DNA from: Reclinomonas americana ATCC 50394
Lineage: Eukaryota
Length of the DNA stretch: 61,899 nucleotides
NCBI GenBank assembly: GCA_048213135.1
Contig: PS015047.1
Coordinates: 36,165-98,063 of the forward strand
Direction: 5' to 3'
Below, in pieces: positions 1,694 through 61,734 of the stretch. The position numbers and the translations under genes are program-made. Below the pieces are notes generated by a model. The model worked only from the letters and a program-made list of their open reading frames with translations. It did not search any database and had not been told where the DNA came from. Each line of letters begins with the position of its first letter. The first letter of the stretch is position 1.

Positions 1694-2217
1694 CTCGCCA
1701 TTCGGTGGATGCACCATGCGCAACGGACACTCGGATGGACCAGGGCACTGTGAGCGGGCAAGGTGTGAGCGACAGGTGGTAGGTCCACGAATCACATCCA
1801 GGATGCACGCAACTGGTCGGCAGAAATTCGACAGATCCGCACGTGCAGAGTGACAAGAGTCGCAGAAACTGCATACGAAGTAACGAGTGAGCATCACACC
1901 GTTAGGACTATGATGCACAGACAACAAGACGCAACTGCTGGAGTCGAGACAGGCACGGGGAGGGAAGACAGAAAGTGAGCAATAACACAGACTGAAAGAT
2001 AAAAGCACGCAGATTTCTACTCACTGTCTGCATCGGCGGAAAACAGACGATAGAGGAGAGCAACAGTGAGAAGACAAGCAAAACACGCATGACAGGTAAT
2101 CGATGTTCGCAGCAAACCGTCTGCAAAACAGACACCAGTGAGTAACACAGCAGACACACCATCAGACAGCATGCAAGAGCAACTGACCCCAAAGCAGAAC
2201 CACACGCTGTGGTTGCC

Positions 2218-2255
<38 letters not shown>

Positions 2256-5200
2256 GAGGCGGCAAGTAAGAAACGAGTGCACGCGCGTGAACACACTCAG
2301 GGGCATCGACGCAACGCAATACTGCAGCAGAAACTGGCGACACACAATCGATGACACGAGTGAGTACGACGGATAACGATTGATAGAAATGAGGCTGGCT
2401 GGTCAATAATGATCTCACCGACACTGACAACAAGAAGCGCACAGTGTAAGCACAGTGAATACACACAAGACAAGACGAACTGTAACCAACCTTGAACTGG
2501 AGAAGGCGCGAGTAACGTCACAGAACACACAAATCGCAAGTGAGTGACAATGAATACGAGAGACTGGCAGCGAAACGCGTACCTCCCTGCATCACACACA
2601 ATAAGTCACAAGAAGCAAGAAGAACACCGATAATCAGTGCAGTTACTCACAAGAATGCAGTATCATGCTTGGGGCACGACAAGGCACCGCCAGCCACACA
2701 GCCTCCACACACCAGCTCGCTTGGATCAAAGTTGGCAGGATTCTCCGCGCCGCATATCCTCTCACCGCCAAAGTATGGTCGCTGAACGAGCACAATGAGC
2801 AATTCAGAGCAGCGGTGTCCAATCTCCTTCTCTTCCTCATTTGCTTACATATGACCAACATATAAGGAGACACTGTGCTGCACAGTTCACAAAATAATCT
2901 CCATATACAAGCTTGCACAAAGAGCTCAGAAGAGTGACTGTTCAAATCGCACAGTCTATACTGCACACAAAAGCTGACAAAAGAGCAATGGTTCGGCGTA
3001 TTGCTTCCAGCTCACACACTGTTGCTCGTCCAGTCTCTCATCCACAAAAGAAAGTGCGAGAAACAAGACGTGAATTAATTTCACCAACTCTTTCATCATC
3101 TCTCACCTCCCAGTCTTTCATGTCCGTTCTTTCTCTCTCTCTCTCTTTCGATCACTTGCCTGATCTCAAACACCTGTCTACTTGCACCTTTTCTCTTCTC
3201 ATAAACGACCTATGTGTCTATCACCTCATCCTTCCCCTTTCCCACCCTCCCCTCTTTCTCTTCCCCTTTTACCCTCGCTCACCTGACACCTATGGCACAA
3301 ATAAAAGTTGTACCGATGCAGACCATATCCAAGTGGATCACCAAAGAACTGACTGCCCTCGGTGGTGATCTCGGGGCACGATTCGAGCGCATCGAGTCGC
3401 AGCCGAGCAAGACACTTGTCCTGCGCGTTTTCAGCTGTTCAGCAAACTCGCTGCACAGAACTATTCTGTGCAAGAAGCAGAACGCACCTTGACATGCTCA
3501 AAGAGTTCACGCACGGGAGCCATGAGTGGCTCCAGCGACTTGTGCGACATGGTGGTCTTGCACAGCGGGCACTGCGAGAACGAGAAACTGATGCGGCTCC
3601 CTGCAAAGCCGAAGAGTGAGTACACGATCAAAGAACTCACCGCCACGCGATGCAGGTGACCAACCGCTCCATCTGGCCGTCAACATGCTCTCCACACACT
3701 CGGAGTGGAAAATGTGACCGCACTCCAGTCGAATGCAAGGCGCACAGCTCAGCGGTTCCGAGTAGCAAATCGGGCAGTAGTCCGAATCGTCCTGTACAAA
3801 CACACACACACACACACGCATCAGCACCATCTCTGTGTCTTCTCTCATCACAAACAGTCGCGCACCACCGCCGTCTGCGTGCATCCGTACAAGCACGGCA
3901 AGTGTTCCGTTTCGTTGCAAATGCCATGGCAGACGTGTCCGCAAGGGAGAAGCGCGCGACAGCTCTTCTGACAGCGCGACTCGCACGCAGGCTCCGTGCA
4001 CACATTGGAGAGTGCCGGCGACAATGGCTGTGTGCACAAAGTGATGAGACTGGCGGTAACACGAGAATACTGTGCCAACAAAGAGCACGAACCGCGGTAC
4101 ATCGGTTGGCGTCGGTGAGGGCAGACTCGCAAAAGCGGCACGTCTGCGGTCCGTCACCGCGATCGGCTGCGCGCACCTCAATCACCGCCTTGAAAGTTTG
4201 CGGGTCGACCAACGCCATGAGCTGCATGGCGCGGAGAGTGGTACACCGCAGGCGCACGCCGCCCGCTCGCCACTCGACCGACACGGCCGGCACTACTCGC
4301 CTCACAATTGTGTCCTTGAACTCATCCGATATGTCTGATGAGAGGTGGGAATGGTGAGTATTGTGACCAGACAAAGAGACAGACAGACGAGTGGATCGAC
4401 AATGACGCACTGCGGAAGCACACACAAGCGCAGGCCTTCCAGATGGCCAGCGTGCTCTCAATCACATCAATCGTTCCCGCGACATGCATCAACGACGAAA
4501 TGTGCTCGCCACACGCCTCCGCCAGCGCCTCGTCCCACAACTCGCTTTGCGCGGCGACCGCTCGCAACAGCGCACCGATCTGGGCGAGCGAGTCAGAGAT
4601 CCAAGATAGACACCAAGAGCTCATGAGCAATAATTTGCAAACCTCATCGGCGATTTCGGCAGTGACCACAGTGCGCATGCACAACGCGGCGCAGCTGCGT
4701 AACCTAGTCGACCGCGTGACACCCACTCGCTGATCTCGAATGTCGGTGGTCAGCGCACGGGCAAGCGACAGGAGAAGCAGGTCCACCACTTCGCGTGTGC
4801 CACTGGCGTGCGTTTGTTCCACGCCTAAAGTGGTGAACGGGTGATGAATACGCTTTCAATCATATACGCGAGAGCAAATGGCCTGCGTCTCTCTCAAAGC
4901 CACTCCGATGTTTCCACCCTTCCCCTCTTTTGCACTTGACAAGGAACTCGAGCGCAACTTGCTTCTGTCAGTCACCAACTCTCCCTCTTGCCTCCTTCTC
5001 ACCCTTTCCCTCACCTTACAACACCCAATCAGATGAGCGCGTTTTCTCAAAGCCTCTCCTTCTCTCTCACGCCATTCTCTCTTTCACTCCTTCTCTCCAA
5101 TGCTATCATTTGCACTTTCCAACTATACAAAAGCAACTGGTATTTGTATCTCGCCAAGCCTCCCTTCCCTCTCCCCATCTCTCTTCACTCTCCTACCAAA

Positions 5201-7200
5201 CCAACGATCGCAACAGGCCAGATTCTTTCTCGCACTTACTCTCATCCCCTCTCTTTCTCCCCACCCCCCCCCCCCCTTCCCTCCCTTCCCTTTCCCTATT
5301 CTCGCACTTACCAAGGTCATCGTGCAGACCACATACGGCACTGTCGAGCACAGCCGAGTCCGCATTCAACAACACCTTTTTCAAGATGTGCAGACACGTC
5401 CGCTGCGCTCGCACAGTGGCCGTCGACATCAGGCACTCGAGAAGCACCTGCGCACAGCGGATGAGCAAAGAAAGCAAAGAGATTGAAATTCAACAGAAAC
5501 CGCACCTGCACGGGGAGCGGGCGACACACGAGGTTCAACCCAACGGCGGTGGAGCTGAGCAGCTGCATCACTGAAAGGAGCTGGAACACTTGCGTTTCGT
5601 CCTTGTCGGACAGCGCGGCGACATTTAGTGTTCTGTGCATCACGCTAATGAGAAATCCAAAGAAAAGGGGGGAAGTAAACAATCAGTGCTCGACACACCG
5701 CAAGTGGTCCTCGGGTTCGTCAGCCTCGCGCACAGGTGGAGCATCTCGTTTGAGAATGGCCTTTTCACCGGCACTCTGCATGAGGAATGCGGCTCTCTCG
5801 CGCTGTGATCGCACGAGGCGGGGTGAATCCCTTTGCAACTCTCACGTAATCTCTCACAAACACTCCGCACCTGCACAATCTCCTCGTAGTGCTGCCTGTC
5901 GTTCAGCACATTGTTCGCCGTCTCCGAGAGGTCATCGTGGCACTCACGCAGCGCGACGTACGCCACATCCAGCGGCAAACCGAGCATGCCCTGCAACTCA
6001 CGTGCCAGTGGCAGTCGTGAAGCGGCATCAACGACGCCCACAGGACCTGATGGCAGCACTCGGTGAGCAATATCGTGACGGATCCTTCCATCCCCATCAA
6101 CAACACACCTTCACGATGCACCCACGAGGCAGCCTGTTCCACCCTGCCGCGTACTTTCTGATGCCAATCCTGCTGCGCCGGTGCACGCGACGGACCTTCG
6201 TTCACAGAATCCGCAGCGACGGCTCCCAGAGTGCGGGCCGCATACCACCACAACTTGTACACGTCAAAGACGGGCAGCTCTTGCGGTGCGACCTCGTACT
6301 TTTCCAGTGCACTGCAGAGAAGAAAAGTGAGCAGCACGCGGGAGAGCGCTATTTGGTGAGAAAACTCCTCCACGCAACTACTGCACAATGTGCATGTCGT
6401 AGTGATCGCTGATGAGAGTCTGGATCATCTCGCCGACCTCGGCAAAGCAAATCTAACATCACCCACAAAGTAAAAGTGAGCGATAATCGAAGTACGTCAA
6501 TTGCAGACAGGAGCCTATTTCGCACCGCTTCGTCCTCGGAACGCTGCAATCGTCGGCCGTCGATTTGAGGCGAATCTCCTTTCAGTAACCTCTCCGCCTC
6601 CTCAACCACGCCACACGCGAGGCACAGCGCATGCAGGCAATCGAGAGCGTCGCGATGGAATGTGGAGGCCAGCTGCACGGATTTCATGTGCCGTGATCGA
6701 GCACTTAAGTTGGAGCAATGTGAGGGCACACGCAGAGACGAAAAGACAGGTAGCATCAACGGGGAGCAACACGCACACGTCAACATTCATGAGGCAGTCT
6801 TCGAGGGTGGCAATGGCCACCTCTGGCGGCAGGCCGAGCGCGGACAATTCGCGGACGTGCACCAAGCGGGCGCGAACCTTGCTCTCCTCGTCGCGATAGC
6901 GCAGCATCAGAGTCGACGCGGCGGCATGTGAGCACGACAGGTCGGTGGCGATCGCTTTGATGCGCATCTCCCGGACGTCGTCCTCCGACACGTGTTTCTC
7001 GGTGGTCAGCAATGTGGCCGACTGGGAATGGAGAGGAAGGATTGAGAAGGCGATGTAACGAAATGGGGAATGAACACACAATCAACAGTAAATACAACAA
7101 GCGGAACACAACCACAACCGCAATTAACGCGCAAGAACATGATTAACCAAGAGCAAGAGAGACAAACGCGCGAACAAGCAAAGATAAGCACAACTTGAAA

Positions 7201-8638: not shown

Positions 8639-11600
8639 CGGAGTAGAAGAAGCAGAAAAAGAAGAACGAGAAGTAAATTAAGAAGAATGAGACGAAGAGG
8701 AAAACGCCATATAGACCAACACCGACGCCAAGACTGGCATAACAACGACAGCAAACAAGGAGATGCAGACATCGATCCGCAATCTCTACATTCACGAAGT
8801 GCACGACTAACACATACATCTTCGAGCGGACGCTACAACTGAACACACTGCACCGGATATACCCTCTCTTCAAGAAACAACAGAAAAGCTCAAGCATACG
8901 CAAAAAACACTAAAACGCAATTGCATGCATCTCTCTCACTATCGCTGATGGGAACTAAGGCAGAGGAAACGTACATCCGTTGTCTATTACAGCCGTCCCT
9001 CCCTCTCACCCTATCCGTCTCCCTTCTCTTCACCCTCCCCTTCCCCTTATCTCACCCCTTGTCCCTTATTTCCCCACGTCGCCCTTCCCCTAATCTCCCC
9101 CTTCATCCTTCCCCTTTCCCTCGACTTACCACCACCGACGGCAACGACGGCAACGAGAAAGTACCCTCGACGCCCCGCTCCTGCGAACCCGGCAGCGACT
9201 GCCCGGTGCGAATGGACGGCGCGGAGGCGGGAATCAGAGATCGCCGTCGCGACTCTCCAGCCGACGATGCCGTCGCCGCCATCATGTGATGCATGACGGG
9301 GAAGAGCTGCGCGCGGTTCAGCAGGTCGTAGTCCTGACTGCGGAACGGCATGCGGAGAATCTTCAGGATGAGATGGCTGACGGTCGGCGCCGTGTCCGAA
9401 TCCTTGAGCAGGCGCGTCATGGTGGTCAGCAACGTGAGGAACTCGAGTTGCAACAATGTGGCCACGGTGACGCCGCAACCCTCGCAGTTGCTGGCGAAAT
9501 GCATGGCGGCGTCCTTCTCCTCATCTACGCACAGGAGAGAGAGAGGTAAGTCAAAAGCAGCCTGGCGATCTCCCCTTTTTTTCTCGATTCATGGACCTGC
9601 ACGCTGCTGATTGTCGCGGGCCTCTGCTTGATCGGCAGACAGGTACTTGAGACCGAGTCGCGAGGCCGGGTGGCACATAAAGTGCGCGAGATGCCACAGA
9701 ATGTCGTGCGACACCGAGGTGCGGCCGTATATCCTCAGCTGACGTGACGCGAAACGGAAGCTCTGCGCACGGAGGGAACCGCGTTGTCGCCGCTGCGGCA
9801 TAATGTTGGCCACTTGCGTGACGAGCGTGCCGACGCGCTGCTGCAACTCGCTGCTGACACTTCCACTCTGTGCGACGAGGGATGAGTGCACACAAAGGTG
9901 AAGATCCGCGCTCCCCAATACAAACCTGTGTGTAGCGTGACACGAACGGCGACACATCGTGGCTCGGCAGCTCAATGTGCATAAAGGCGACCAGCGCACG
10001 TGCGAATCGGTCAACTGTGCGCGCCGCCATGGCCACACTCTGCGCGTGAATTTCATCAAGCTGCCGCTGCCGCACCTCCACCGAGCTTGCCGCCGACCCT
10101 GTGGCCGCGGAGCGACCCGCAGCTGCAACAGGAGGTGAGGCACGGACAACAAGCATGGTATCGATGTCGATTACACTCACCAGCACGCGCCTGCTCCTCG
10201 AAGAAGCGCGACGGCGACGCGGAGGCGAACGGATTGAAGGGGGTGATGGGAGTGAGCGGCGTGGTCGGCGCCGACGGTTCCCACGATTCGGTGCGTTGCG
10301 CGTACACGGCAAGCTCCGAGGCCGACTGCGTGCGTGCCAAGAGCACACCGACTGCATGGCTTCGAGTAAGCGCAAGTTGACAAAACTCATTCTCTCCGCC
10401 ACTCGCTCACCCGAGGTCTCCTCGTCGGGGGCACCACGACCACCCGACAGGTCCGCCGACGACTTGAGTTGCGGCGGAAGGAAGTGCCGCGCAAACAGCA
10501 GGACCACCATGCGCTGCATTGCCGAGTCCAACAGATGCGCTTGGTACTCTGCAGGCAGGAAAGGAGATGAGTCCATTGATACGCACAGGGGAAGAACTCA
10601 AGACGCAACGCTTGGCATTCTTGGCCAGTGGCGAATTGTTGGCCGAGGCCACCACCGCGTCACACACTCGCTTGGCATTCAACCAGAATACGCCCAGACG
10701 CACAAGGTCGTGCGTGTGCACCAGCTCTTCGTCGGCTGTCAGGTCGGCGTCATCCTCACGGCGCAGCACATCGAGTGCGCTGCAACAATACAGTGCGGTC
10801 AGCCCATGTCCCTCGCCGAGGCATTACCATAAAACTGCCACCACTCACCGCTGAAACTCGGCCGACGGCGACGAGTGCGCAATGAACTTGAGCATCAACG
10901 CAAATGCCACACGCGTGAGGTGAGCCAGCGCCAGCTCGTTGTCCTTGGTCAGCTTGTGCGCCGGTCGCACACCAGCCGCCGCAGACGCGTCACCGCCAGC
11001 AGAGGCAGCAGCGCGAGCGGCGCTCTCGGCGAACGGATCGTGCGCTCCATCGCTGAAGAACGCCGGCGACACAATGTCGTGCGACGACGAACCGAGACGC
11101 GACAGCGGTTTGACAAGATCGGCCAGCGAGCATTGTGTCTCCAGCAGTTGCACCAAACGACCGGCGGTGCTCTCCGGCGCCACACTCGCCGCGCACAACT
11201 CGTCCAGCAGGCTCGCGGCCGCCGTCGACAATTCGTGATTCTCTTGAGGCAGCTGCAGCAATGCAAAAGTCGGTACTGCAACTAATCAATGGACGTCGTC
11301 GATCGCACAAACCTCGACAAACACAGGCTCGCCCGTCGCCGAGTACCGCGTGTCGGTAACACTTTGGCTGACCAAGTAGCGTGGCTCGAGGCTGTTACAA
11401 GGAAATGGTAAGTCTCATGGAGGTTTGCGAAAGACCTTCAAAGTCGCACGCACCCGCCCTGCAACAAGTCGCAAGTAAACAGTGGCGCATACATGCGCTC
11501 GGCGAGAGCCGACGGGTGTCCGTGCGCCAGCTCGGCACACATGGAGGCGGCCAGTGAGCTGCACGACTGGAAGAGGTGCGCTAGGGGAGAGAGTGTTCTG

Positions 11601-20438: not shown

Positions 20439-20469
<31 letters not shown>

Positions 20470-20606
20470 GTGCGTGAGTGCGTGAGTGTGTGTGTGTGCG
20501 TTTCTCAACATTCCGTGTCACGGTTGCTGAAGACCGCCCTGCGCGCGAGACTCTCGTATTCTTTGATCACGCTGTCGAGGTCCCAACCCTCGAGAAGCGT
20601 GGTCAT
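1694..20606 (-). CDS. MYCBP2: Giant MYCBP2/Highwire/RPM-1 (PHR)-like RING-Cys-relay E3 ubiquitin ligase, many exons; the last codons fall in the 729-1656 gap
   Basis: Spliced C-terminus: CRFCES..CTEPACESRCQKSCRALLPCGHVCHG..HLPCLYGC (~4150-3870); RING DDSDYCPICYSEPLSCAPCIRLECGHIFHSECVESMLTARWSGSRISFSFSQCPLCK (exons 3791-3665 and 3600-3488); DKCLARLRLDALESCPEITTEGSQFFGDPLGYGLHRYNFYLCHRCQ (3420-3283); RPYFGGERICGAENPANFDPSELVCGGC..CPKHDTAF (2781-2651); micro-exons giving [27 protein letters not shown] (1868-1814); CPGPSECPLRMVHPPNGE (1747-1694). These match the MYCBP2 RING and tandem-cysteine region. Upstream, in MYCBP2 order: RCC1-like segments (~15700-17900), ESPHPY..LEIRFD..LLVPGD..WGFRATVTG (~12600-11720) and a DOC-like RVRQIRL segment (~7990-7790). 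The start ATG at 20606 (MTTLLEGWDLDSVIKEYESLARR) is inferred. Confidence 0.85.
1869..2650 (-). other. Chain of eight micro-exons (2586-2583, 2496-2491, 2423-2419, 2333-2316, 2206-2188, 2120-2118, 2027-2025, 1937-1936) separated by nine 64-109 nt introns
   Basis: Each piece is flanked by CAG| and |GT: GGAG, TTCAAG, TGTCG, TTTCTGCTGCAGTATTGC, CGTGTGGTTCTGCTTTGGG, ACG, ACA, CA. Joined in order they read in frame as the conserved MYCBP2 catalytic motif. Confidence 0.88.
8225..8900. repeat. Intronic low-complexity tract of (GAA/GAG)n, (CAA)n and (CAT)n microsatellites
   Basis: Visible simple repeats such as caacaacaacaa and gaagaagga inside an intron of the E3 ligase gene. Confidence 0.85.
14970..15180. 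repeat. Intronic 14-bp minisatellite (GAGCGAGGCGGAGG)n
   Basis: More than 10 near-identical tandem units visible in the sequence. Confidence 0.85.
19316..19475. repeat. Intronic 16-bp G-rich minisatellite (GACGGAAGTGGGGGGA)n, about 10 copies
   Basis: Tandem units with minor variants (GACGGAAGTGGAGGGA, GACGGAAATGGGGGGA). Confidence 0.9.
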
Positions 20607-21555: not shown

Positions 21556-21587
<32 letters not shown>

Positions 21588-35395: not shown

Positions 35396-35427
<32 letters not shown>

Positions 35428-44937: not shown

Positions 44938-45487
44938 TTAGTGGAACATCGGTGCGAACTCGCCCTTGCAGCTGCGGAAGGAGTTGCTGCAGCGAAAGTC
45001 GACGTGGTAGCTCTGCGACGGGGCGAGGGTGGTGAGGAGCGAGGTACGGACAACAGGATGTCGGAACACAGTACCTGGTCGCCCCACGAGATGGCGACGC
45101 CTCCCTGCGAGGAGCCACGCTCTGTGGTGCTCCACACCTGATTGCCGTTGGCGTCGGTGAGCACAATGACGTACGTGTCGGGCTCCACAATGGAACCCTC
45201 GTCGAAGACGAAGGACATGGTCGAATTGTTGGGCACGCCGTCGCACTGCACAGTGCCCTCGGTGTCGTGGTGTCCGAGGTGAATGCCGAAGGCTGTGTAC
45301 GGAAGGAGGGGTGTTTGAGAGAGAGGTTGGGGTTTTGCGGGGATGTGGGTGGCGTGGCGTGCACGCAACAAGCGCTGGTGCACGGCCAGCTAGACTCCAC
45401 GTACGCCGCGACCTGCAGCAGGGCGCAGCAGACGCAGATCGTTGCGGACATGACGAGGATAATGGTAGAGGTGGGCGACTTGCTCAT
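44938..45487 (-). CDS. Small secreted Cys-containing protein (~135 aa, 3 exons), unknown function
   Basis: Signal-like MSKSPTSTIILVMSATICVCCALLQVAA; donor GTTGCG at 45369; exon 2 SFGIHLGHHDTEGTVQCDG..ISWGDQ; exon 3 SYHVDFRCSNSFRSCKGEFAPMFH-TAA. Confidence 0.65.
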
Positions 45488-49328: not shown

Positions 49329-52300
49329 ATGGAAGATGCGCTGCAACAGTTGCTCGTCACTGGAAGCAAGAGAGGCCTGTGTGCTGTCACACACTCTCTT
49401 TCTCTCTCTCACACTCACTCACTCTCTCACACACACACAGAGAGTCAAGTTCCGAGCTTACTGGAGGCCGTCTGGGCTGCAGCTCGCAGTGAAGGCGACA
49501 CATGGCATCGCCTGTTGCTGTTAATGTGTGAGAAGGTGAGCAATAAGCTCACTGACTGTGAGAGAAAGAGACACTGATCTCTCTCAGTTCCTCCGAGAAT
49601 CGAAACGAGTGCGACGACTGTTGCTGGTGAGAGCCCTGCAGGCACTCGATCACATGCTGTCCTCTGTCAGTGGAGACAGGTTGGTGCCTCTCTCTGTCTC
49701 TCACACTCTCACAATCAAAGAAGGCCCTCATCTGACACAACTGAGCAACAGCAGTCAGTGTTGTTGGATGCAATCGACCATGCAATCAGTGCTCACCTCG
49801 TCTTCTGTGGACAACACTCGTGCGTGCATGGTGGTTGCGTTGACTGCGGGCGAGTGTGCGCGACTGGTGTGCCTCCATCATCAACAAGGGGAGGAGACTG
49901 CACCAGTGGCAGCAGCAGCAGCAGCAGTGCAGAGTGTGCTGACTGTGTTCATGTCACTGGTGCCATCGCTCGTCCACTGTGCGACACGACACAGGTACTT
50001 CCATGCAGTTGATCGTGTTCTTTTTTCGAGTTGTTGTGGTTGGTCATACTGTGTTGACGCGACAGTGTGCTTGTGTCGGCTGAGCGACAGCCGACGCGAG
50101 TGTCGGTGGAGGCACTGGATGCTGTGTGGTGGATGGTGTATGCGGCGTCGTGTGATGCTGCTGCTGCGTCGCGTGTGTGGCAGTGGGCGTCGTCGCTGCG
50201 TGCGGCACTCGGCGTGCTGCAGGAGGTTGCGTGCAGAGGCCGTGTTGGTGAGCTCGCTGGTGGCTGATGTTGTGTGTGNNNNNNNNNNNNNNNNNNNNCC
50301 CCCACGCACCAGCCTGCCACTCGTGACGATTGTCGCGCTCCGCCAGGCCATCCGCCTCCGCCCTTTGCTGCAACCGCACCACCGTATCACACGACTCCAC
50401 CACGCCCTGCAAGCCGCGGAGAAACNNNNNNNNNNNNNNNNNNNNGGAAAGAAGAAGGAAGAGAGTGTGTGCTTATTGGTGGCGTCCTCACACTTGTGCA
50501 GCCGTGGAGGAGGCACAGCAGTGGTTTGCGTCTCGCATGCGTCTGTTTAGCTTGTGCTTGGTGGAGAATGCGGCGTCGGTGCGACCGCTGCGTGGCACGA
50601 GTCGCGAGTATGTGGGCTCGTTGATTGTGTCAGTGTCTGTTGCGTGGCGGGTCAAAGTTCGTGCATTGCCTTCTCTCTCTCATACTTCGTTGTCGGAGGC
50701 AGGCGCGACTCGAGGACGATATTGAGGGCGAGTCGGAAGACTCGTCGGCCGGCATTCAAGAGGAAATTGTGTGCCTGCTCACATGCGTCTGCCTGGTGTT
50801 GGGTGCTGTCGGACAGGCCACGGCGACTGCCATGCTGCAAGAGGATGGTCAGATGCAACAGGCTCTACTGCAGCTGCTGCCTGGCTTGGTGCGTGCGCGT
50901 CGTGTGCCAGCCTGTTCTCACCTTGCACTCACCCCTCGCGCCCGTTAGATGACACACGGCAACGACGCGGTGGTGGATGTGGCCTCGCAGTTGCTGCACG
51001 CCGCGCTGCCGTCGTTTGATCGTGCAGCACGCGAGTTCATGGTGCAGCAGTTGCTGGAGACGCTGGATGAGAAGGACAAGGCGTCGCGCATGGCGTCTGT
51101 GTTCCTCGCCGAGTATGCCGTCCTGTTTCGTGGCCAGCCATGTTACCTTTTCTTGCACAGCCTTCGTCTCACTCGCCACACGCAGAGACAAGGACCTGGT
51201 GCTGCCGGCGGTGTTTGCCCGCCTGGACTCTGACAAGCCGCAAGTCCGCCGCAACGCGTTGTCGGTCGTGGAACGGCTGTGTGACCTCAACGTGCATGTG
51301 CTGCAGGACGATGCAGAGCTGAGGTTTGATTGCAGGGACACTTCCCTCCGCTTCCTCACGCGTCTCACCGCACTCTGCCGCCGCACAGCAATCGCTTGTG
51401 TGACCTGCTCGTTCGCCGACTGAGCGACGAGGACCTGTCGTCGCGAACCGCCACGTCGCGGGTGTTTTCCGTGGTTGGTGAGTGGACCATCATCATCGTT
51501 GACGAGAAGCGTGTGTGCTCACGCCTTCCTCTTTGCGGTGCCGTAGAGCCCGAACGCAGTCTGCCACCAGTGACGCGCGCACTGACAGCGCGCGATGAGC
51601 GAACACGTGCGGCGGCCGAGCGAGCGTTTGTGGCGATCATGTCGAGCAATCCGTACACGGATCAGGCGATCAGCACACTGCTGGAGGTCTTGAGGTTGGT
51701 ATCCAGCTCTGTGGACTTCCTTCGTGTTGCAGCGGGGTCACTCATTCCTTCTTGACAGCGCTGATGCCACCGTCTCCACCGTCTCCAGTGGAACGGAGGC
51801 ACCTCGCTCACCAGCGCAGATTGGCAAGAATCCGACGGCGGCGGCAACGAGTGTGGCTGCCGAAATCACACCGTCGCAGCGACTGCTGGAGCGCGTAGTG
51901 CGTCTCACGGATCAGTGGATTGGCAAGGTACGCTTCATGAACTTGTGGCACGTTTCCTTCTCGCCGCCTTGGCTGACTAGTGCGGTGCAGATGGATCCTG
52001 CGACACTGAACGCGGTGGCGGTGGAGACGTGTCGAGTGATTCTGTCGCGCCCGAACCACCCCGCCGCTGTCTCCTTCCTGTCGAGTGCCTCGTCACATCT
52101 GTTCCCACGCACATTGGCGCACGTACTCCCGCTGCTGGTCGGCCACATGGCGCGCGAGAAACCGTACGTGCGGTTGGGAGAGGGGGGAAACGGAGGCTTT
52201 GCTGTCTGACGACGTAGTGTGTGCAGTGTGACCGAATCCTATGTGGCGTCGCTCCGTGCTCTTGACGAGGACGACTTTCATCGTGTGTTCACGTTTGCTC

Positions 52301-53743
52301 GGCTCAGTCCGTTGCTGGTGTTGCGGTCGTTGCCAGTGAGCGCCCTGCGTGACCCGCTGCTCGCGGCACAGTGTGAGGAAGATCTTGTGCGACTTGCTGG
52401 TAAGTTCGTGGACCTTGAATGCCTGTGCTCTTGCTCATTAATCTGGTGTACAGCGTGTCTGCGTGAGCGCATGCACAACATCCTCGAGGGTCGCGAGGTG
52501 CGGAAGCTGGCTGCTGAGGGTCTCGCCCGATTGCCAGCTGCCTTGGTGCTCGATCAGGTCTTGCAATTCATCGAGGTGCGTGAACCCAACAAGTTTCGCG
52601 ACTCGATACTTCTCTTGTCCTCACTTTGCATGACACACAAAGGAGACGAGCGCTGAATCCGATCTGGAACTCGTCAAGTTGCACCTGTATGTGGCGTGTT
52701 GCATGCTCAACTATCATCAGTCGCTATGTGGCGACGGAGGCGAGCAGGAGACCACTGCACAGCGTCGACTCGTGCATGCACTGATCCGCCTGCTCGACCT
52801 CCCGCGTGTCAGTTGCGAGAAGGTATCATGTGCACTTTTGTGCCAACGCATCTAACACACCGTGTTTGCAGGCGAGCAAGTGGAGAATCTGCATCGTGGT
52901 GTCATTGACTGCCTGTCGTTGGTTGCCGCTGTCCAGTTGGATAGCCTAAAGAATCCAGTCGTCTTGGAGCCGCCGCCGCCGCCGAGGGAGGAGGAGAGCC
53001 ATCGCCCGGTTATTGAAGGTGCTTTTTCACGACATATTTCCTTTATTTCCTTCCCGCCTGAGACTCTCGCGCTGCAGAAATCGAGACCCCTATGCCCACA
53101 CAATCGGCATCCTCCTCATCGTGGCTGTTGGAGGAACTGCTCTCCTCCATCACGACGTCGGCAAGCTCGCCGTGGTCATCGTATGCCTTGCCAGTGGTCG
53201 CCGCACTGCTCCCGCGCGTGTCCCTCGCTACGGCACTGAAACTCTTCTCTCGCCTGCACTCGACGCTTGTCGATCTGAGCGCAAACACACATACAGCGGT
53301 GCCACTCCGCATCGCTGCACTGAACGTTGCGTGGCTTAACCCCGCTCGTGTCTCTGTGTGGCGTCTCACTCTGCGCCTCTCGTGCAGACCCTCTTCCACT
53401 TTATCATGCGCGTCAAGGAGAGCGCGTACGCCTCTGCTGTCGCCCTTCTCACCGTCGCCGTGGACTGCACACAAGACCCGCAAGCAGAGGCAAGCATCAC
53501 CTGCATTATCCAACTTCATACACGCTATCCTTTCTCACCTTTTCCTATTTCCAGGTCCGCATGGCTGCCGTAAAACTCATCGGCAGCATCATTGGCACAT
53601 GCGTCAATGCTCTGGAACGCACACCGGCACTAGTAGAGCGCACTCAGCGCACTCTACAGTCGCTGGCGCAAGCCGACGAGTCGCGTGCAGTTCGCAGCTT
53701 AGCCGAGAGCCTGTCCTCTGCCGTGTCCTCTCATTCTTCATGA
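49329..53743 (+). CDS. HEAT/ARM-repeat protein, many exons
   Basis: HEAT-like segments VFARLDSDKPQVRRNALSVV, LVRRLSDEDLSSRTATSRVF, ALTARDERTRAAAERAF, EVRKLAAEGLARL and VRMAAVKLIGSII; TGA at 53741-53743. Confidence 0.72.
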
Positions 53744-54005
53744 ACGACTCGGTTGGTTCATTTTTCTTCATTGCATCGTGTGGAGAGGAGGAGAAGACAG
53801 AGCAGTGGTGTGTGTGTGTGTGTGTGTGTGTGCATTTCCTCTTTGTGTTTGTCCGAGTGTGTCTGTGTCTGTGTCTCTGTCTCCCTGAATGAGTGCTGCT
53901 TCGGAGCACTCTGCGCTGCTTGCCTTTGCGCGCTCGTGCTTTTCCGAGTGGTCACTGCAAGAAGTGTGCGACTCCAATGCCTTTCCCTGTGACAAGACAC
54001 TGTTC

Positions 54006-56742
54006 ATGTCATTGGTGGCCGACTTGGTGAGTGTGAGTGTGTGTGAGTGAGAGAGAGAGAGAAAGGGCACTTTTGTGTGAGGTTCAAGTGGGCAATTGCG
54101 GGAAATCGTGACTCATCACTTCGTGTTCGGAAATGTTTGTCCGCAGCGTCGGTGTGAGGAGGCGGCGAGTCGGATCGACGAGGTGGCGGAGCGAGGACGA
54201 GGGTACGTGCGCGTGTTCATAAGGAGCAATTGTTGTTTCTCACAAGCGTCATGGGTTGCAGGTTGCGCGAGGGAGCCAATTTTCAGCTGCTGTCCAAGCC
54301 GGCGCAGAGCCGACGACTGTTGCCGCTGACGATTGAGGAGATTTGGGTGCGCTGCGAGTCGCTGGATGGCGCAACATCGGTGTTGCGCGACATGGCGGAG
54401 GAGGCGTTCTCGGAGGCTGTGGTTCGGTCGCGTGGTGCACTCGGACTGGCCACCAATCGGCGCAGCGGGCAACGACACTCGCGCCGCCTGCGCCAGGAGA
54501 AGAGTGCAGCACATTTGCGGCGACCCTCCAAGCTGCAAGACTCGGTGGTGTATTCAAGGAACACGGTCCATCAGGCCCTCGTGCTGTGTGCGTTTCTCGG
54601 CTTGCTGCAGCATCAGCTGTTCGAGCGACTGTTGGCCGTGGCGAGTCGCTCAGGTCTGCGGAAGCACGCTGTCCTCTCTCTCTCTCTGTGTGTATCACCT
54701 CCCTCACTTGTTGCGAACAGCAGGCCCCACATTGGCGACGGCAGTCAAGCGCCTGGACAAGCACCTGCACAATGCGTGCGTTCTGCTGCCCTCCCGCCGT
54801 TTCTCTCGTGGGTGTTTTTGGGTCATCTGACTTGTGCGCAGACTGCTGCGTGCTCTCGATGGTGCCTCGTCAATGGCAGTGCCGACGTCGGTGTGCATCG
54901 CCAGCTTCCTGGAGGGCGTGGTGTATCCGCCCGGCACCGTGCGATCGCCCAAGAGTGCAGTCGCAGACGCCGCTGGTCTGCCGCCACCCGACGCTCAAGT
55001 ATTGCGTGCCGTCTCGTCCGAGTTGCACGCGCACTTGACCAAGCTGGCGGCCGCTGCATGGCCGCAGGTGTGCATGTAAGCAAAGATGTTCACAGCTGTG
55101 CTCTATGGTTGACCGCTCTCCATCATGCAGATCCGCGACAACCTGCCGAGGCTGGCGGCGTTCGCCGAGCAGCAGGGTTACTTTTCTCCCACCTCCAGCG
55201 TGCCGCGGTTTCCCGGTCGCAAGTTGCGCAGGCTGGGCGGGTGAGAATTGTGTACTCTTTGAAACTCATACGTGTCACGCAGGAGAGCCAGTGCAGTGGA
55301 ACGAGGCTTTCTGCTCGTTCTCGGAACACTTGTGGGCAACGGTGGCTTTCTCGGTTTGTCAGAGGCTTGGGTTCTCTCACTCACGCCTCCACTTCTTTTC
55401 TCACCAGTTCGTGGCACAGATCTCGTGCATCGCTGCGAGGATGCGCATGCAGTTGAACGGGTGCTTGTCTCGCTGCGCCAGTGGGATCGACGGCTGTGCA
55501 TTCCCATGGTTGGCGACTCGTCGTGCTTAATATCCATTGTGACTTGCTGCTGACTTTTTGCTGGTGCACCGCTGCAGCTCCACCAGTTCTCCCAATTGTG
55601 TGCGTCGCATCTGGACCGCGTCTTCCGCCCCAATCCGGTCACCGAGGCGCTGGAGATCGACGTGGCCATGTTGCCTCTCGACGTGGTCGTTGTGCTGCTG
55701 ACGGTGCAGTTGGACGCGTGTGGCGCCGTGTGCATGGAGTTGCGTGCGTGGGGCGGCAACGGAAGTGGTCAATTAACGCTGACTTGTCATCTGTCTCTGG
55801 CAGTGGTGACGCTGTGGAGCAACCGCCAGTGTCGCCCTGGGATTCCGAGAGGGTGGAGGAGATGGAGGCTGAATGCAGTGAGAATGTGGCGCCGGAGGGC
55901 GTGTTTGCCGGCAGCTCTCGGCGAAGGTGAGGACCGCTGCCTTCCAAAGCACTCTTACATCCTGCCTCACTACCCATCAGAGTGCGCCCTGCGCAACCAG
56001 TTGACGCGGACATGGAACCGCCGGAGTCCAAGCGTCGACGAGTGGGCGAATTGGTCTCCGTGTGCGAAGCCACTGTCTGTGAAGGCCCACCACAACCCAT
56101 GGCCCGGTCGCCGCCGCCACCACCACCTCCGCCACCACCCATACCGAGTCCGCGAATGGCGACACAAAGCCGCGTGGTGCTGCTGGAGGTGTGTCTTTCA
56201 CTCCTGCATTGTCTTTCGTTGCCCGACGCTGACGCCTGCTGTGGTGCATGCAGGGCCCGAGTGCCAACTCGGCGCTGGTGAGCACAGTGCAAGTGGGCGA
56301 GTGGGAGAATGGTGCTTCCTCGGGTGCGCTGGTTGCCCCCGTCGATGAGGCAGCCGCACCGTCGCACCGTCGCTGGCAGGTGTGTGCGGCCACATGATTG
56401 TTGCCTCGCACTGAAGGCTCACGTCTCCTGCTCCAGCTTCTGTGCACGTTGTCGAGCACACTGGACTGCGGCGTCACTGTCGACGGAGTGCACGTCACGT
56501 ACCAGTTTCCAGGCGCAGATCCGTGCTCGATCACGCTGCCGGTGCGAGTGGCACTTGACTGCGGTCACCGATCTGCTGCGCAGGCTTGTCGTTTCTCGCA
56601 AATCAATGTCAATGGCAGCTCCGATGGGCTGACAATCATCATTCTGCACACAGGTCGACTACAGCACACTGGTGAATGGAGCCGGCACACCACGCGTTAC
56701 TTGCACGTGGCAGTGGCGGTTGGAAGAAGAACAGTGAACTGA
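54006..56742 (+). CDS. Hypothetical multi-exon protein
   Basis: ATG exon MSLVADL|GTGAG followed by a series of GT-AG-bounded coding exons. The last exon LLCTLSSTLDCG..GRRTVN ends in TGA at 56740-56742. No domain was recognised. Confidence 0.5.
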
Positions 56743-56762
56743 AAAAATATAGCACAAACAAT

Positions 56763-59700
56763 TCACTTTTTGGGACCCTTCTTTCCACCAGCGGGTGCAC
56801 CCTTCTTGCCGCCCTTGGGGTTCGGGTCGATTTTTGGTGCCGCCGACCCAACAATGGTGTCACTGCGCAGAGGGGAAACAATGAGAATGCCGAAGAGAGA
56901 AGGAACATCAATCTCGGCAGATCAACGCACGCTTCCTCCTCCGCTTGCAGTCGGCCCAGTTCGTCACGGTACGTGTCATTGAACAGCGACTGATCGATGC
57001 GAGTGGTCTGGCAGAGGACCACCACGCCCTCGCACCAGCCACGCAGCCACACTTGCTGCTCTTGCAAGCGACTCGACTCTGCAAACGAGGGACGTCAGAC
57101 ATCAACCAAAGCATCGCCGTCTTTTTCGCACAGAGAGACAGACCTTGAGTGTCAAACTCGCGAATCTTCTCCGAGGTCGACGACAGGAACCGGCGGAACA
57201 CAAAGTCGCGACCACGAATCACCGACTTGTTGACAGGCGCGGCATTCGTGGAGTAGCCGCCGCCCAGCAACTCCATCGGTGGACCGCCGGATCCCTCTCC
57301 ACCATCTGCCGCATTCGCAGCAGCGGCAGCCGACGGACTCGCCAACATCGGCAGCGGTGCGCCAGTGAGCATGCGCGTGACGCGCAGCTCGTTGAGCGGC
57401 AGACCCAGCACCTCAATGGTGGGGAACAGCTGGCCTTCCGCGGCTGCCGCACCACCAGATCCAGCCGCCGCCGCTTGCTCGAGCAGCTTGGCGCGCAGCA
57501 GACCCTTGATGTTCTTGTGCTTTCCGGCAACAATGTTGTCGCCCGGAACAANNNNNNNNNNNNNNNNNNNNNNNNNNNNNNNNNNNNNNNNNNNNNNNNN
57601 NNNNNNNNNNNNNNNNNNNNNNNNNNNNNNNNNNNNNNNNNNNNNNNNNNNNNNNNNNNNNNNNNNNNNNNNNNNNNNNNNNNNNNNNNNNNNNNNNNNN
57701 NNNNNNNNNNNNNNNNNNNNNNNNNNNNTATCGTGGTGAGAAGTCACACGGCGCACACTGTAGCCACACGACAACCGCACCTGACGAATTTCACGATTGG
57801 CCGTGTCGCGATGATTGTCGGCAAACTTGATGAGAGACATGGCGATCTCGGCCTGAATGTGGGCCAACGTCTCATTCGCATCACCCTTGATGGTGTGCGG
57901 TCGCACAATGGGCCGGTTGCCCAACTTGGCAAAGTACTCGGTCACCAGTGGCTTCACAGCATCCATGAAGGCCGCATGCACTTGATCGCGCAGTGTGTCA
58001 ATCGGAACGCTGTGTTCGGCAACCGCCGATCAGGACTGACAAAAAGAGAGCGACAAAAACACGGACGCAACATGTCGAATTCCACAGGCTCGTCGAACGG
58101 AATGCTCAGCGAATCGACGGCCGGATTGTGCACGGCATATTGCACGTCACCGGGCACCTTGATGGCCGGCACTTCATGCTGGAGGACGCACAAAAAAACT
58201 AAGGGGAACGAGAAGGCAGAAAAAGGGAGCATAGGAGACATCGCCCACACCTGCAGCATGCGTACAAAACGACATCGCTGATGCATTTCCAGGCGAGCCT
58301 TGTCGGCCACTTGCAGCAAGTAATTGCCGGCCGGCGTCTGCCATCACAAACGAACGGTGTGAGTACACACACTCTCCCCTTCCTTCACCTTCACCTTCGC
58401 AATCACCTTGCCAACAGTGGTACGCGTTCGTTGCGCCACATACTCGGCGAGATCGTCGGCGCTGGACTTGGCGGCCTCGCACGCACCATCGAGCTCCGCA
58501 ATCCAGTCGGCAATCGCACGCAAGCGTTCCGAGTTGACCGACGTCTGCACTCGCAGCTCGTTCATCTTGGCCGAGAACGCCTCCTGCACCTTCTCGCAGA
58601 ACGCCACGTCGGCGGCGTGCATGGTGTACTTGTCGGCGACCAGTCGTGACAGGCTTTCCTTGTCGGCGCGGATCTTGGTGACGGTGGTCTCCAGTTGCGT
58701 ACGCAGCTGCTGCGCGAGTGTCTCGGCCTCAGCGCGCAGTTCGGCCAACATGGCCAGGAACTCTTCTCGCTCGGAGGGGTGGAAGTCGCCACCTGTCTCA
58801 AAGTGTTGCCAGGACTGCAGCGAGGAGGTGAGTGACGAGAAGGGGAGGGGAGGGGAGCGAGAGGAAAAGGGGACTCACATCTGCGACTTGTTGATTGTTG
58901 CGATCCACCAGTGCCAACAACCCCTCAACGTCCTTCCTGACGCGAGCCTCCTGATCGTTCAGCAGCACATCGTGGGCACGAATGTTTTCGGCCACGTCGC
59001 GGTTCGCCGCCTCCAGCGAGGGTATGCGCTGTGTTTTTCAGAGGCGCAAGTTGCGTGTGAGTGTAAGACGGCGGTCAAAGCTCTCGTGCAAAAGAACATA
59101 CACACCTCCGCGCTACCAAACGCTCCATACAGCGCCTGCACCTGTGCGCGGTGATCGTCGAACGCCGACTGAATCTCCTGCACCAGGTTCTGCACCGCCG
59201 ACGCCGACCGCTGGGTGACGGCCGACGTGGAATTGGCGTGACGCTGCAGGCGCGCGCGGTGGCTGGCAAGCCCGCGCACGCGCTGCGTGAGAGCCGAGGC
59301 CGCCATTGACGGGCGCGGAGCGTGCATACGCAGGCGCTTCTCCAGCAGGGAGTCCGCATTGTCCTAAAGAGAGAAGTGAGAATGCATCGCGGCCATGCTT
59401 CAGAATGAGGGGTACGCACAATCTCCTCGCGCATGAACGACTCGGCAGTGGCTGTCTCGCGTCGCTTGGTCTCCACCAAAAAGTCAATGAGCTCCACGCG
59501 CCACTTTTCGCGCAGCTGTCGCAACCGTTCGTACTTGATCACCAGAAGCTGCGACAAGGCGGCCGAGTCAGCAATTGTACAAAGCATTCGGCATGCGCGC
59601 GTACAACGCACCACGGTGCTGTGCGAAATGTGCTTCGCCTCCTCCGCTGCTCTCTGCACCTGCTCGGCAGCCAGACGCTCTCTCTCCCTCTCCTCTGGCG

Positions 59701-61734
59701 TCGGCTCTGGTGGTGGCGGTGGCGGCGGTGGATCCTTTGCGCCCTTGCCAGCCGGAGCTGGTGGCGGTGAGGCGGGTGGCGGTGAGGCAGCAGCTGGTGG
59801 CTGTGGTGGTGGCGGCGGTTCGGGGGCCGGCTCGAATGAGCCATCGTCGCGAGGCGGAGCCGTAATGTAGTTCAGCATCCACGACAGATTCTGTGCGCAC
59901 GCGCGTTGATAGTGAGAAACGGCGTGGCTTTGCATCATGGTAATGCACAAACCGGCGCAGGAGTCGCCGAGGCCCATCGGACCTCGCCAGCCGTGAAGAC
60001 CACCATGTCGGCCAGTGGATCTGGCATGGGTGGTGCATCCACGTGAGCCGAGGCCGCAGCGGAGCTCGCCGGTCTGCAAGAAGAAAAGAGAGAGAGAGAG
60101 AGATGAGTGTGCAGAAGGACGGGGAAGGAGAGGTCGACGACCAGCGCAACTTGGCCGCCTTTCCCGCCTTCCCTGCCGATGCAGCTGCCTTGCCACCCTT
60201 TGCGGGGGCCGCTCCACGTGCCTCCTCTTGCTCGCTCTCCAGTCTGGCCTGCCACTCGGCAGCAAACCTGGCATTCCATCGAGTGAGAACAAGCACAACG
60301 CCAATGTGTTGCAGTGATGCCCACTCAACTTGGATCGTATCAAGTCCGCCGACTCCACCTGCATCTCCTTGATGAGCTGCTGCTCGTAGTGATCAAAGCG
60401 CCGGTTCACGTCCTGCGCGTAGTCCTTGACGCGTTGTGTGCGTTTTCGGTGATACTCGTGGTACTCTGACGGGTAGTGAGCATCACGAGTCAACACGACA
60501 CGAGAAGAAAGTCGCTCACCGGCGAGAATCTTGTCGAGCACCGCAAACACCTGTTGGAGTGCATCGTGCGCACCGGCCTCGGTCGGACTCTGCGTCATTT
60601 CACGCAGCGCCCGTTCGTGCTCGTCCTGCGTGCAAATGAGTGAGGGTGTGTTGGACTGTCGATGATACAGAGAGATGTGAGCACACCTCCAGCTCCTTCA
60701 GAATCGATTCGTCCTCGTTCAGCATCAGCCCGAGGTCGCGGCGCACCATGTCATCGGCCTCCTTCACAAACTGCTTCACGTGCTGCACGAAATCGTGCAC
60801 CGTGATCGTGGACGTGATGACGGCCGTGTGTGGTCTTTCCAGGTACTCGTCGTTGTACACGTGGTGCGCCTCGTCCCACAAATGCGACGCGGCGTCGCGC
60901 ACCCTCAATATGTGCTGCTTGCGATCTTCCTCCAGCTGCTGGCAAGTGGTGCGGATGCACTCGTCGAACTGCTCAACAGGCACATGAGCCACGTGCTCCA
61001 GACGCGCTTTGGTGGCGTCCTTGTCGGCGTGCAGCAGGTTCTCCATGTTGTGCTGCGCAGCCACGCAGATGAGCACATTGGCGGAGACGGAATACAGGAA
61101 AGAAACGGTCGACTGACCTCGTGCTCGTCGTAGCGACCGAGGAAATCGGCGTGGAAGGCAGCGATTTTTGCACTCGTGGTGCTGCGCAAACAAAGTCAGA
61201 GCGAGGCAAGGGGTACAGGAGGAAGTGTGCATGGCGTCGCACCGGAAGCGCTCCTCAGCCGCCTCGAGAAGGTGCTTCGAGTAGGCACTCAGCGGCGTGT
61301 TGATCAAATCCGACACCTGTACGTGCGTGCGCGCGTGAGATGAGCGTGACGCATGAAGCAGACACAAAATGACTGGCACACCACGGACCTGCTGATCGCA
61401 CAACTCCACCAACTTGTCCGTCTGCGACTCCACCTTGGCCAGCGATTGCTGGCGCACGTCGTGCTGGCGGTAGCGTTCCTCGGAAAAGTGATCGCCCAAT
61501 ACGCCTGCGAGCACAGAAGTGAGTGAGCAGCCAGAATTGTGAACAGGCACACTCGAGGGGAACGCAACGGAGTGCCTTGTCGTGGTGCACGCCACGCCAC
61601 GCCAGCTTGCGCTGCTCCCACAAGTGTCGCGTCTCGCGCTCTCGACGGGTGGCGTGCACGCGAAGGCGCGTGATAATGTCGGTGAACATTTTGCGCACCT
61701 CCACGAGTTTGAGGTTTTGTTGCAGGGCGAATTC
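56763..61734 (-). CDS. CCDC180: CCDC180/CFAP76-like axonemal coiled-coil protein (partial; continues beyond the window)
   Basis: Long coiled-coil exons (..RERETRHLWEQRKLAWR.., ..LLEKRLRMHAPRP.., ..VRPHTI.., ..GRDFVFRRF..QQVWLRGW..), with a Lys/Gly/Pro-rich tail GKKGAPAGGKKGPKK and TGA at 56765-56763. The family was assigned from remembered motifs, not from a search. Confidence 0.6.

Follow-up and report, generated by a model that had tools for sequence, protein, structure and literature searches.

A frequent GTTGCGY class of 5′ splice sites in a 62-kb nuclear window of Reclinomonas americana and its possible pairing with U1

A 61.9-kb stretch of nuclear DNA from the eukaryote Reclinomonas americana ATCC 50394 (GenBank assembly GCA_048213135.1, contig PS015047.1, positions 36,165 to 98,063; hereafter the window, in whose coordinates all positions are given) has a GC content of ca. 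56%, contains 13 N gaps and carries very intron-rich genes. An earlier note on this DNA had proposed that GTTGCG, which lacks the G at intron position +5, recurs here as a donor (5′ splice site). We find that donors of the form GTTGCGY make up a real, specific and frequent class, represented by 23 candidate introns at eight loci; its share of donors seems to be ca. 8-16%, or roughly one intron in seven. The properties of the class suggest that in this lineage U1 small nuclear RNA (snRNA) reads such sites one base out of step, or that U1 RNA has been retuned.

GTTGCGY donors in the ABCA gene and across the window

The gene for a half-size ABCA-type transporter, located at 33664-40607 of the forward (+) strand, has ca. 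19 introns. Two of them, 36326-37180 and 38675-39513, are long, CT-rich and of low complexity, while the remaining 17 measure 60-660 nt, 14 of these 17 being shorter than 110 nt. To collect homologues, we searched exhaustively with HMMER, using the 198-aa membrane exon of this gene as the query. The best relative, P0002, is 52% identical, and its cluster includes a full-length protein of 932 aa, P0152; named relatives come from Heterolobosea sp. BB2, Fonticula alba, Dictyostelium and Riccia. Homologues were placed on the DNA by a spliced protein-to-genome aligner that knows bare GT..AG and contains no donor matrix.

The alignment of P0152 produced 18 introns between 33721 and 40527, three of which have GTTGCG donors (37721, 38418 and 39804); with the linker intron at 38072, which was read by hand, GTTGCG accounts for 3 of 19 ABCA donors. 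In alignments of nine homologues, the donor at 39804 was recovered nine times, 38418 eight times and 37721 six times, the misses of the last falling at 37745 (twice) and 37752 (once). All three introns lie on the forward strand and are of grade A, by homology. Removal of the first (37721-37787, 67 nt, donor GTTGCGC) joins ...YLDRVLPT/SCGGAG..., where the slash marks the junction, and matches LPT-SGSG and IPRGTSGVAV of the relatives. Removal of the second (38418-38487, 70 nt, GTTGCGT) restores the Walker A region, GKSTTINIV/SGLLPPTSG, and removal of the third (39804-39865, 62 nt, GTTGCGC) yields CDEPT/TGLDP, as in DEPTTGLDP of P0152. Read by eye, the second and third are the sole GT..AG pairs that keep both frame and motif. 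Thus, removal of the three ABCA introns restores conserved protein, as judged by homology; removal of the other 20 candidates is compatible with the reading frame without being the unique solution.

The donor at 38418 is preceded by a homology-validated micro-exon of 24 nt (38394-38417) that encodes part of the Walker A motif. The earlier note had related the donor class to a tolerance of micro-exons, and this is the single link of that kind that we saw.

The ordinary donors of the ABCA gene (validated set, 33721-40420, +) conform approximately to AG/GTGMGT (M, A or C). Most of them have the +5 G, as the earlier note had stated (11 of 16 validated non-GTTGCG donors). A is rare at +3, being present in 2 of 16 validated and 12 of 164 predicted donors, and +4 is A or C. 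The shortest homology-validated intron is 60 nt long.

The whole window was analyzed with a Viterbi gene finder that accepts any GT as a donor and relies on self-trained models of coding sequence, intron composition, acceptors and branch sites. Without a donor model it predicted 164 introns, the mode of their lengths being 55-70 nt, and GTTGCG, with nine occurrences, was the joint commonest donor hexamer. According to a hand calculation, the independent single-position base frequencies of the 164 donors predict ca. 0.5 GTTGCG donors, and therefore do not explain the nine that were seen, so the recurrence claimed in the earlier note withstands the test that the note had itself put forward as a possible refutation. 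When a self-trained hexamer table was added, GTTGCG became the top hexamer (13 of 157 introns). At 3 of 19 ABCA donors and 9/164 to 13/157 in the predicted sets, it is not the dominant consensus. The finder is rough, and also returned doubtful introns of 41-49 nt; its counts are therefore used as bounds only.

Because the finder misplaces some ABCA donors, a test free of both reading frame and donor model was added, in which we determined, for each word starting with GT, the share of its occurrences that have a top-5% acceptor 48-86 nt downstream. The base rate over 7559 GT sites is 11.4%. GTTGCG, which occurs 31 times on the forward and 37 times on the reverse (−) strand, has such an acceptor in 22 of 67 cases (p = 2.9e-6) and is the best hexamer. 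For the heptamer GTTGCGT the score is 17 of 23 (p = 5e-12), with the best acceptors at distances of 60-84 nt, and it alone among 928 heptamers survives Bonferroni correction. Words that differ from it slightly show no comparable association: 5/44 for GTTGCG[ACG], where all five positive sites have C at +7, 2/25 for GTTG[AGT]GT, 1/36 for GT[ACG]GCGT and 0/27 for [ACT]TTGCGT. The ordinary words GTGCGT and GTGAGT score 17/79 and 11/60. The GTTGCGT excess is confined to +48..+86 on the same strand (1-6 of 23 in other windows of distance and 1 of 23 on the opposite strand), and it did not change when the acceptor model was retrained on 155 introns without GTTGCG donors.

GTTGCGT occurs 23 times against 10.1 expected under an order-2 Markov model. 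About five of these 23 are implausible as donors, compared with ca. 10 occurrences expected by composition, and the heptamer may thus be avoided outside intron starts.

Intron type and the register of U1 pairing

All 23 candidates begin with GT and end with AG. They resemble the other introns of the window in length, in a CTCAC- or CTGAC-like (CTSAC-type) branch region 10-25 nt from the 3′ end, in the pyrimidine tract and in the terminal YAG; 17 of the 23 GTTGCGT sites have a top-5% acceptor at 60-84 nt. An introner or transposon-derived family was considered and rejected: candidate intron bodies have a mean pairwise score of −0.153 and 49 other short introns one of −0.150, and the matches shared between bodies are only 10-11 nt long and lie at the donor or the branch region. 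The consensus of U12-type introns comprises an RTATCCTT donor and, near the 3′ end, a TCCTTAAC branch site. A U12-type assignment was rejected on motif, as the candidates have GTTGCGY donors and the same CTCAC- or CTGAC-like sites as other introns. They share with U12-type introns a long, nearly invariant 5′ motif that is independent of an exon-side G, and differ from the U12-type consensus in both donor and branch site. With unrelated bodies, and with branch sites, tracts and lengths like those of other introns, the candidates are neither an introner family nor U12-like. In the full-text literature we did not find GTTGCG described as a donor class, only primers and unrelated sequences containing it; logos in figures are not searchable, and a prior depiction is possible.

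The interpretation that we favor, to which we give an even chance, is that GTTGCGY introns are ordinary major-type (U2-type) GT-AG introns that carry a second, high-information donor class of this lineage, with CA/GTTGCGY docking U1 one base out of register and the U1 5′ end adapted to GUGCGU-type sites. It starts from the composition of the sites. Position +7 is T in 18 and C in five of the 23 candidates and is never a purine, and +8 is G or C in 17. Positions +3 to +7 of the class, T-G-C-G-T/C, run parallel to the canonical +2 to +6, T-G-(A/C)-G-T. GTGCGT is the top canonical hexamer (9 of 157 predicted and 3 of 16 ABCA donors), and the class maps onto it by a one-base deletion or shift. The proposal of the earlier note that GTTGCG equals GTGCG with one extra T thus stands on the intron side, where the motif aligns with GTGCG(T) displaced by one base; the bulge that the note derived from it fares worse, for the exon side favors a shift.

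Only 1 of 23 class donors is preceded by G at −1, compared with 15 of 16 homology-validated ordinary ABCA donors (Fisher 1e-8), or with 22 of 33 ordinary donors if 17 good +5G/+6T donors from the finder are included (1.6e-6). This is below the background, too, as ca. 28% of bases are G. The last two exon bases before class donors fit the canonical −3/−2 preferences better than the −2/−1 preferences (Wilcoxon p = 0.002). Written with their exon ends, CAG/GTGCGT and CA/GTTGCGT are one nine-mer differing by a G-to-T change. Judged by these exon-side sequences, we infer that a shifted register is favored over a bulge; the bulge is disfavored because it would keep the pair between −1 G and C9 of U1, and that G is seen in 1 of 23 sites.

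Under the shifted register, CA/GUUGCGU would be the lineage's common optimum, CAG/GUGCGU, with the first intron G replaced by U, and U1 would dock on it as on the optimum, one base out of register. G+1 would then pair in place of the exonic −1 G, U+3 in place of the +2 U, G+6 in place of the +5 G and U+7 in place of the +6 U. The place where the cut is normally made would have no GU, and cleavage would occur at the sole GU, one base upstream. The invariant +5 C would be accounted for if the facing U1 base were G rather than pseudouridine, i.e., if the U1 5′ end had adapted to GUGCGU-type sites.

The strictness of +5 C is seen when the two central bases of GTT-NN-GT are varied: acceptor association is found in 17 of 23 sites with GC, 2 of 4 with GA, 2 of 7 with TC and 0 of 12 with GT. 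Among donors, the ratio of GTTGCGT to GTTG[AT]GT is 18:2, compared with 9:15 for GTGCGT to GTG[AT]GT (Fisher 5e-4). Duplex energies were calculated with ViennaRNA for the textbook U1 5′ end, with 400 random GT sites and 65 ordinary donors as the comparison set. The canonical U1 forms a model duplex of −2.7 kcal/mol with GUUGCGU, as against −7.1 kcal/mol with GUUGAGU. It pairs with the class worse than with random GT sites (mean −1.05 vs. −2.48 kcal/mol; area under the curve (AUC) 0.28), while the AUC for ordinary donors is 0.71. In the same model, hypothetical U1 5′ ends with G at position 5 (ACGUAC, ACGCAC) give AUC values of 0.80-0.82 for the class and 0.71-0.75 for ordinary donors, and a hypothetical seven-base end, ACG(C/U)AAC, gives 0.99 for the class (by construction) and 0.75-0.78 for ordinary donors. 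An adapted U1 is a plausible conjecture from this modeling, since the canonical U1 pairs poorly with the class and prefers A where C is fixed.

Displaced pairing of U1 has been described before. A shifted (+1) register serves rare atypical human sites (Roca & Krainer 2009 as cited in Tan et al. 2016, PMC4856993). As in the account of it given in the cited passages, U1 would here pair displaced by one position with the cut staying at GU, +6G/+7U would act as +5G/+6U, and the exon preferences move by one; unlike the human sites portrayed there, which are rare and varied in sequence, the class has one fixed heptamer with an invariant +5 C and covers ca. 8-16% of the window's introns. The bulge +2/+3 register (Roca et al. 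2012, cited in PMC4856993) is predicted for 68 and curated for 54 of 201,541 human sites. Its GUU... donors, too, have one U more than the consensus, but the register as presented in that article's passages expects a −1 G pair, in contrast to the 1 of 23 found here.

Changes in U1 itself are treated by Roy & Bowser 2022 (bioRxiv 10.1101/2022.06.08.495308). According to the relevant passages of this preprint, Entamoeba has GUUUGUU donors and U1 AACAAAC, Mastigamoeba has GUGCGC donors and U1 ACGUAC, both standard and modified U1s are reported for Physarum, and Thecamonas and Mamiellales have standard U1s despite a +4C preference. Retuning of U1 thus has a precedent without being obligatory, since Archamoebae changed U1 while Thecamonas and Mamiellales kept the standard one. 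With this precedent, the variant U1 or U6 snRNA that the earlier note had considered is a plausible idea. The class shares with the Archamoebae, as they appear in those passages, the +3 U and the seven-base motif with a +7 U preference (Entamoeba), the GC-rich +3G/+4C flavor and the possibility that the U1 5′ end changes together with the donor. The Entamoeba motif is portrayed there as near-universal (88-90% GUUUGU), retaining +5 G, in an intron-poor genome, whereas we see a minority class without +5 G that coexists with ordinary AG/GTRNGT donors in very intron-rich genes. The ordinary donors of the window (GTGCGT, GTGAGT, rare +3 A) resemble the GYGCGY or +4C donors of Mamiellales and Thecamonas; in the preprint's passages on these two groups, no GTTGCG-type second class is described.

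Several points weigh against a shifted register with an adapted U1. Minimum-energy duplexes with the canonical U1 show the shifted register at few sites, and they are weak, 0.5 to −3.7 kcal/mol at the real sites. Validated ordinary donors have A at +4 in eight cases and C in seven, so that these donors do not call for a G at U1 position 5, and the standard U1s of Thecamonas and Mamiellales, as given in the above passages of Roy & Bowser 2022, mean that +4C does not require an altered U1. How U6 pairs with a site without +5 G is left unexplained. The sample is one 62-kb window with self-made gene models, homology stands behind only 3 of the 23 junctions, and the finder misplaced ca. 40% of the ABCA donors relative to the homology model. 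At most sites outside the ABCA gene, the frame alone permits in-frame alternative donors.

Other ways of reading the motif have to be weighed against these data. That the major spliceosome here has two 5′ splice-site modes, AG/GTRNGT and a CA/GTTGCGY mode that depends on a second or retuned U1 (one carrying G opposite +5, or even a full ACGCAAC match), is possible, though we think the balance is against it. A dedicated or fully complementary snRNA, either a U1 variant or the sole U1, with the 5′ end ACGCAAC or ACGUAAC would pair perfectly with GUUGCGU, needing neither shift nor bulge, and its pairing with ordinary GUNNGU donors would leave a single U1 base bulged out. The exactness of the heptamer (1/36, 2/25 and 0/27 for the near words above) speaks for it, as do the missing −1 G, which suits a site in need of no exon-side help, and the modeled AUC of ACG(C/U)AAC, which besides the 0.99 built in for the class is higher for the 65 other donors than that of the canonical U1 (0.75-0.78 vs. 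0.71); the seven-nucleotide match between U1 and donor in Entamoeba, which includes the +7 U, and the coexistence of standard and modified U1s in Physarum would be parallels, as far as the passages of Roy & Bowser 2022 go. We nevertheless hold it to be unlikely, because it requires an insertion and two substitutions in an RNA segment that is among the most conserved known, and because indifference to the −1 base would not predict that G is depleted there (1/23 vs. ca. 28%), as a shifted register does.

The bulge register that the earlier note had proposed, in which U+2 or U+3 bulges out on a canonical U1, aligns the downstream positions just as the shifted register does, explains +7 T and +6 G equally, and occurs in humans (Tan et al. 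2016, PMC4856993, in its passages on atypical registers). It would retain G+1:C8 and U+2:A7 and gain from −1 G:C9, yet −1 G is found once in 23 sites; moreover, a canonical U1 with a bulge would prefer GUUGAGU or GUUAAGU (ca. −7 kcal/mol) to GUUGCGU (−2.7), yet the acceptor-associated sites are 17 of 23 for GTTGCGT and 2 of 4 for GTTGAGT, and the human sites of this kind number only 54-68 of 201,541, by the same passages. We consider it improbable. More doubtful still is a motif read mainly by means other than U1, such as a sequence-specific protein or contacts with U6 or U5, with the match to GTGCGT being secondary. The predicted poor pairing of the canonical U1, the strict +5 C and the preference for G or C at +8 (17/23) would agree with such a reader, but no candidate factor is known, and the requirement for +6G and +7Y together with the shifted exon preferences is what a displaced U1 helix predicts. 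Finally, the motif could be an artifact, with the true cut at another GT (e.g., that at +6/+7), an intron-internal or repeat-borne word, or chance. At 1813 and 1935 the finder did settle on the GT located 5 nt downstream, and at several other sites on in-frame neighbors; the frame alone rarely fixes a donor. Against this, the validated donors 37721 and 39804 have no GT at +6/+7, the cut at G+1 of 38418 is needed by eight of nine homologues, it is implausible that exons would conserve GTTGC in all three phases, the intron bodies are as dissimilar as those of other introns, and chance is excluded. The probability of an artifact is accordingly very small in our judgment.

If the spliceosome does use two modes of donor recognition, AG/GTRNGT and CA/GTTGCGY, a register or an snRNA variant that is rare in humans would be needed by about one in seven introns. 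A genome with a fixed, out-of-register heptamer without +5 G at a large minority of its introns would offer a natural test bed for non-canonical registers, since class and ordinary donors share genes, would bear on what sets the cleavage site after U1 has departed, and would make it possible to look for dual or retuned U1 snRNAs. How U1 and U6 handle donor diversity and how the U1 5′ end co-evolves with donors are open questions, and the examples of such co-evolution so far come from a few intron-poor lineages. In practical terms, gene finders with position-independent donor matrices will mis-call GTTGCGY introns, with shifted frames and broken models as a result; our own finder erred at several sites.

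Candidate introns along the window

The 23 candidates comprise 18 with GTTGCGT and five with GTTGCGC donors (605, 37721, 39804, 55223 and 60150), two of the latter being proven by homology. Sixteen of the 18 GTTGCGT donors have an associated acceptor and are located either on the predicted sense strand or a short way upstream of a gene, while the remaining two, 2315 and 21503, require introns of 195 and 148 nt. Five further GTTGCGT sites were not counted as donors: two of them (58694+ and 59050+) lie antisense to a gene, and the other three (31263−, 49834+ and 50226+) lack a good acceptor. Since +6/+7 of GTTGCGT are themselves GT, all 18 sites have a second potential, frame-shifting donor 5 nt downstream. 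Pairs that are unique in keeping the frame with a good acceptor were found at 38418 and 45369 only.

The earlier note had named eleven sites, and GTTGCG is present at each of them on the strand that it gave. As donors they are of unequal standing: 37721, 38418 and 39804 are borne out by homology, and the rest are graded lower. Sites 6378, 45369, 53326 and 61568 have a strong acceptor at 62-77 nt and were picked by the finder without a donor model. Sites 1813 and 1935 look intron-like, each with a strong acceptor (at 66 and 67 nt, respectively) and with an uncertain exact cut in a low-scoring micro-exon region, and 2315 and 21503 are the weakest. Our set adds donors at 605, 10609, 13154, 14204, 16458, 18695, 23234, 50639, 55223, 55739, 58071 and 60150.

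The largest group of candidates, all GTTGCGT on the reverse strand, lies in the region of a large RING protein (E3). Four of them are of grade B. Introns 6312-6378 (67 nt, acceptor score 16.3), 10549-10609 (61 nt, 13.9) and 18627-18695 (69 nt, in frame, 13.0) were found by the finder without a donor model; at 6378 the upstream frame meets a stop at the donor, and 18627-18695 holds the lone stop (18683-18685) between same-frame open reading frames (ORFs) of 446 and 412 codons. The same finder paired donor 14204 with an acceptor that gives a 474-nt intron ending at 13731, and a strong acceptor is also present at 80 nt (14125-14204). Introns 13088-13154 (67 nt, 13.4) and 16395-16458 (64 nt, 14.5) are of grade C, as the finder preferred an in-frame GTTTCT 6 nt upstream and an in-frame GT 39 nt upstream, respectively, with the same acceptors. 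Two more grade C introns are located in the 3′ part of the region: 1748-1813 (66 nt, 10.5), with a CTCAC branch-like site, and 1869-1935 (67 nt, 12.8), where an acceptor-like CAG 2 nt before the donor blurs the boundary of the upstream exon. The donor 2315 has no strong acceptor within 130 nt, and its possible 195-nt intron, 2121-2315 (acceptor score 13.6 at 195 nt), is of grade D. A homologue search with the 446-aa ORF of the RING protein found no homologue among longer proteins, and the E3 junctions are therefore uncheckable by homology. The earlier note had also mentioned a first E3 donor, GTTGAG, at ca. 20510; the intron of this candidate spans an N gap.

A second donor of grade D, GTTGCGT at 21503 (+) in a lipase-like gene, would start a possible 148-nt intron (21503-21650). 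The junction is in frame, ...ETYVIV/VDREHREINLCIAGTRS, with a weak Lipase_3 match downstream, and there are in-frame alternative donors, e.g., 21530. The two longest candidate GTTGCGT introns, this one and 2121-2315, both contain (TG)n/(GT)n microsatellites, at ca. 21555-21583 (+) and ca. 2226-2290 (−).

The small gene 44938-45487 contains a grade B intron with a GTTGCGT donor at 45293-45369 (−, 77 nt), found without a donor model. Four candidates belong to the large gene 50537-56397 on the forward strand. GTTGCGT intron 53326-53387 (62 nt, 12.3) is of grade B and was chosen by the finder without a donor model; the upstream frame meets a stop four codons beyond the donor. GTTGCGT intron 55739-55803 (65 nt, 11.4) was found with the hexamer table (grade B′), the alternative being an in-frame GT 9 nt downstream. 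Two are of grade C: GTTGCGT candidate 50639-50698 (60 nt, 10.7) lost out in the finder to an overlapping canonical donor, GTCTGT, 4 nt upstream, and for GTTGCGC candidate 55223-55282 (60 nt, 10.1) the finder's alternative, GTGAGA at 55241, results in a 42-nt intron, below the 60-nt validated minimum.

In the coiled-coil gene 56763-61897 on the reverse strand, GTTGCGT intron 61505-61568 (64 nt, 13.7) is of grade B, found without a donor model. GTTGCGT intron 58010-58071 (62 nt, 9.3) and GTTGCGC intron 60074-60150 (77 nt, 16.3) are of grade B′, found with the hexamer table; the alternatives are an in-frame GT 9 nt downstream of the former donor and in-frame GTs 9 and 12 nt downstream of the latter. 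The remaining two candidates, both of grade C and on the forward strand, are GTTGCGC 605-669 in the gene fragment 56-701 (65 nt, 9.0, with GCTCAC), which the finder passed over, and GTTGCGT 23234-23317 upstream of a TPR gene (84 nt, 11.7). No predicted coding exon includes the latter, which may be an intron of the 5′ untranslated region (UTR).

Other features of the window

Among long ORFs, Pfam recognized a RING finger at 3510-4181 (−) and an ABC-2 membrane domain at 37127-37756 (+). The segment 1657-3100 (−), 3′ of the RING domain, consists of tiny putative exons and many intron-like segments of 45-90 nt, with a low coding score; it may represent the 3′ end of the gene for the RING protein, an intron-bearing UTR, or a different gene. 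The homologue searches with the ABCA exon and the RING ORF returned no protein encoded by the window itself, and a word-index search with the ABCA exon among proteins of similar length gave no match.

An Rfam search of the whole window gave no family at the gathering score and no snRNA at E ≤ 1. Sub-threshold matches at 20200-20472 and 35356-35656 (Hsp83 3′UTR, plant miRNA families) were taken as chance; they are of low complexity and lie beside N gaps.

The TPR_10/TPR_12-repeat ORF at 23486-26494 (+) is intronless over 1003 codons, whereas other genes of the window have an intron every 100-300 nt. Another long ORF recognized by Pfam, 32138-33211 (−), encodes a GT4-family glycosyltransferase and has few introns or none. 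The protein predicted from gene 41455-43438 contains, at ca. 43300-43400 (+), an SHLQKHR-like motif, which we take to resemble SHAQKYF-class Myb domains.

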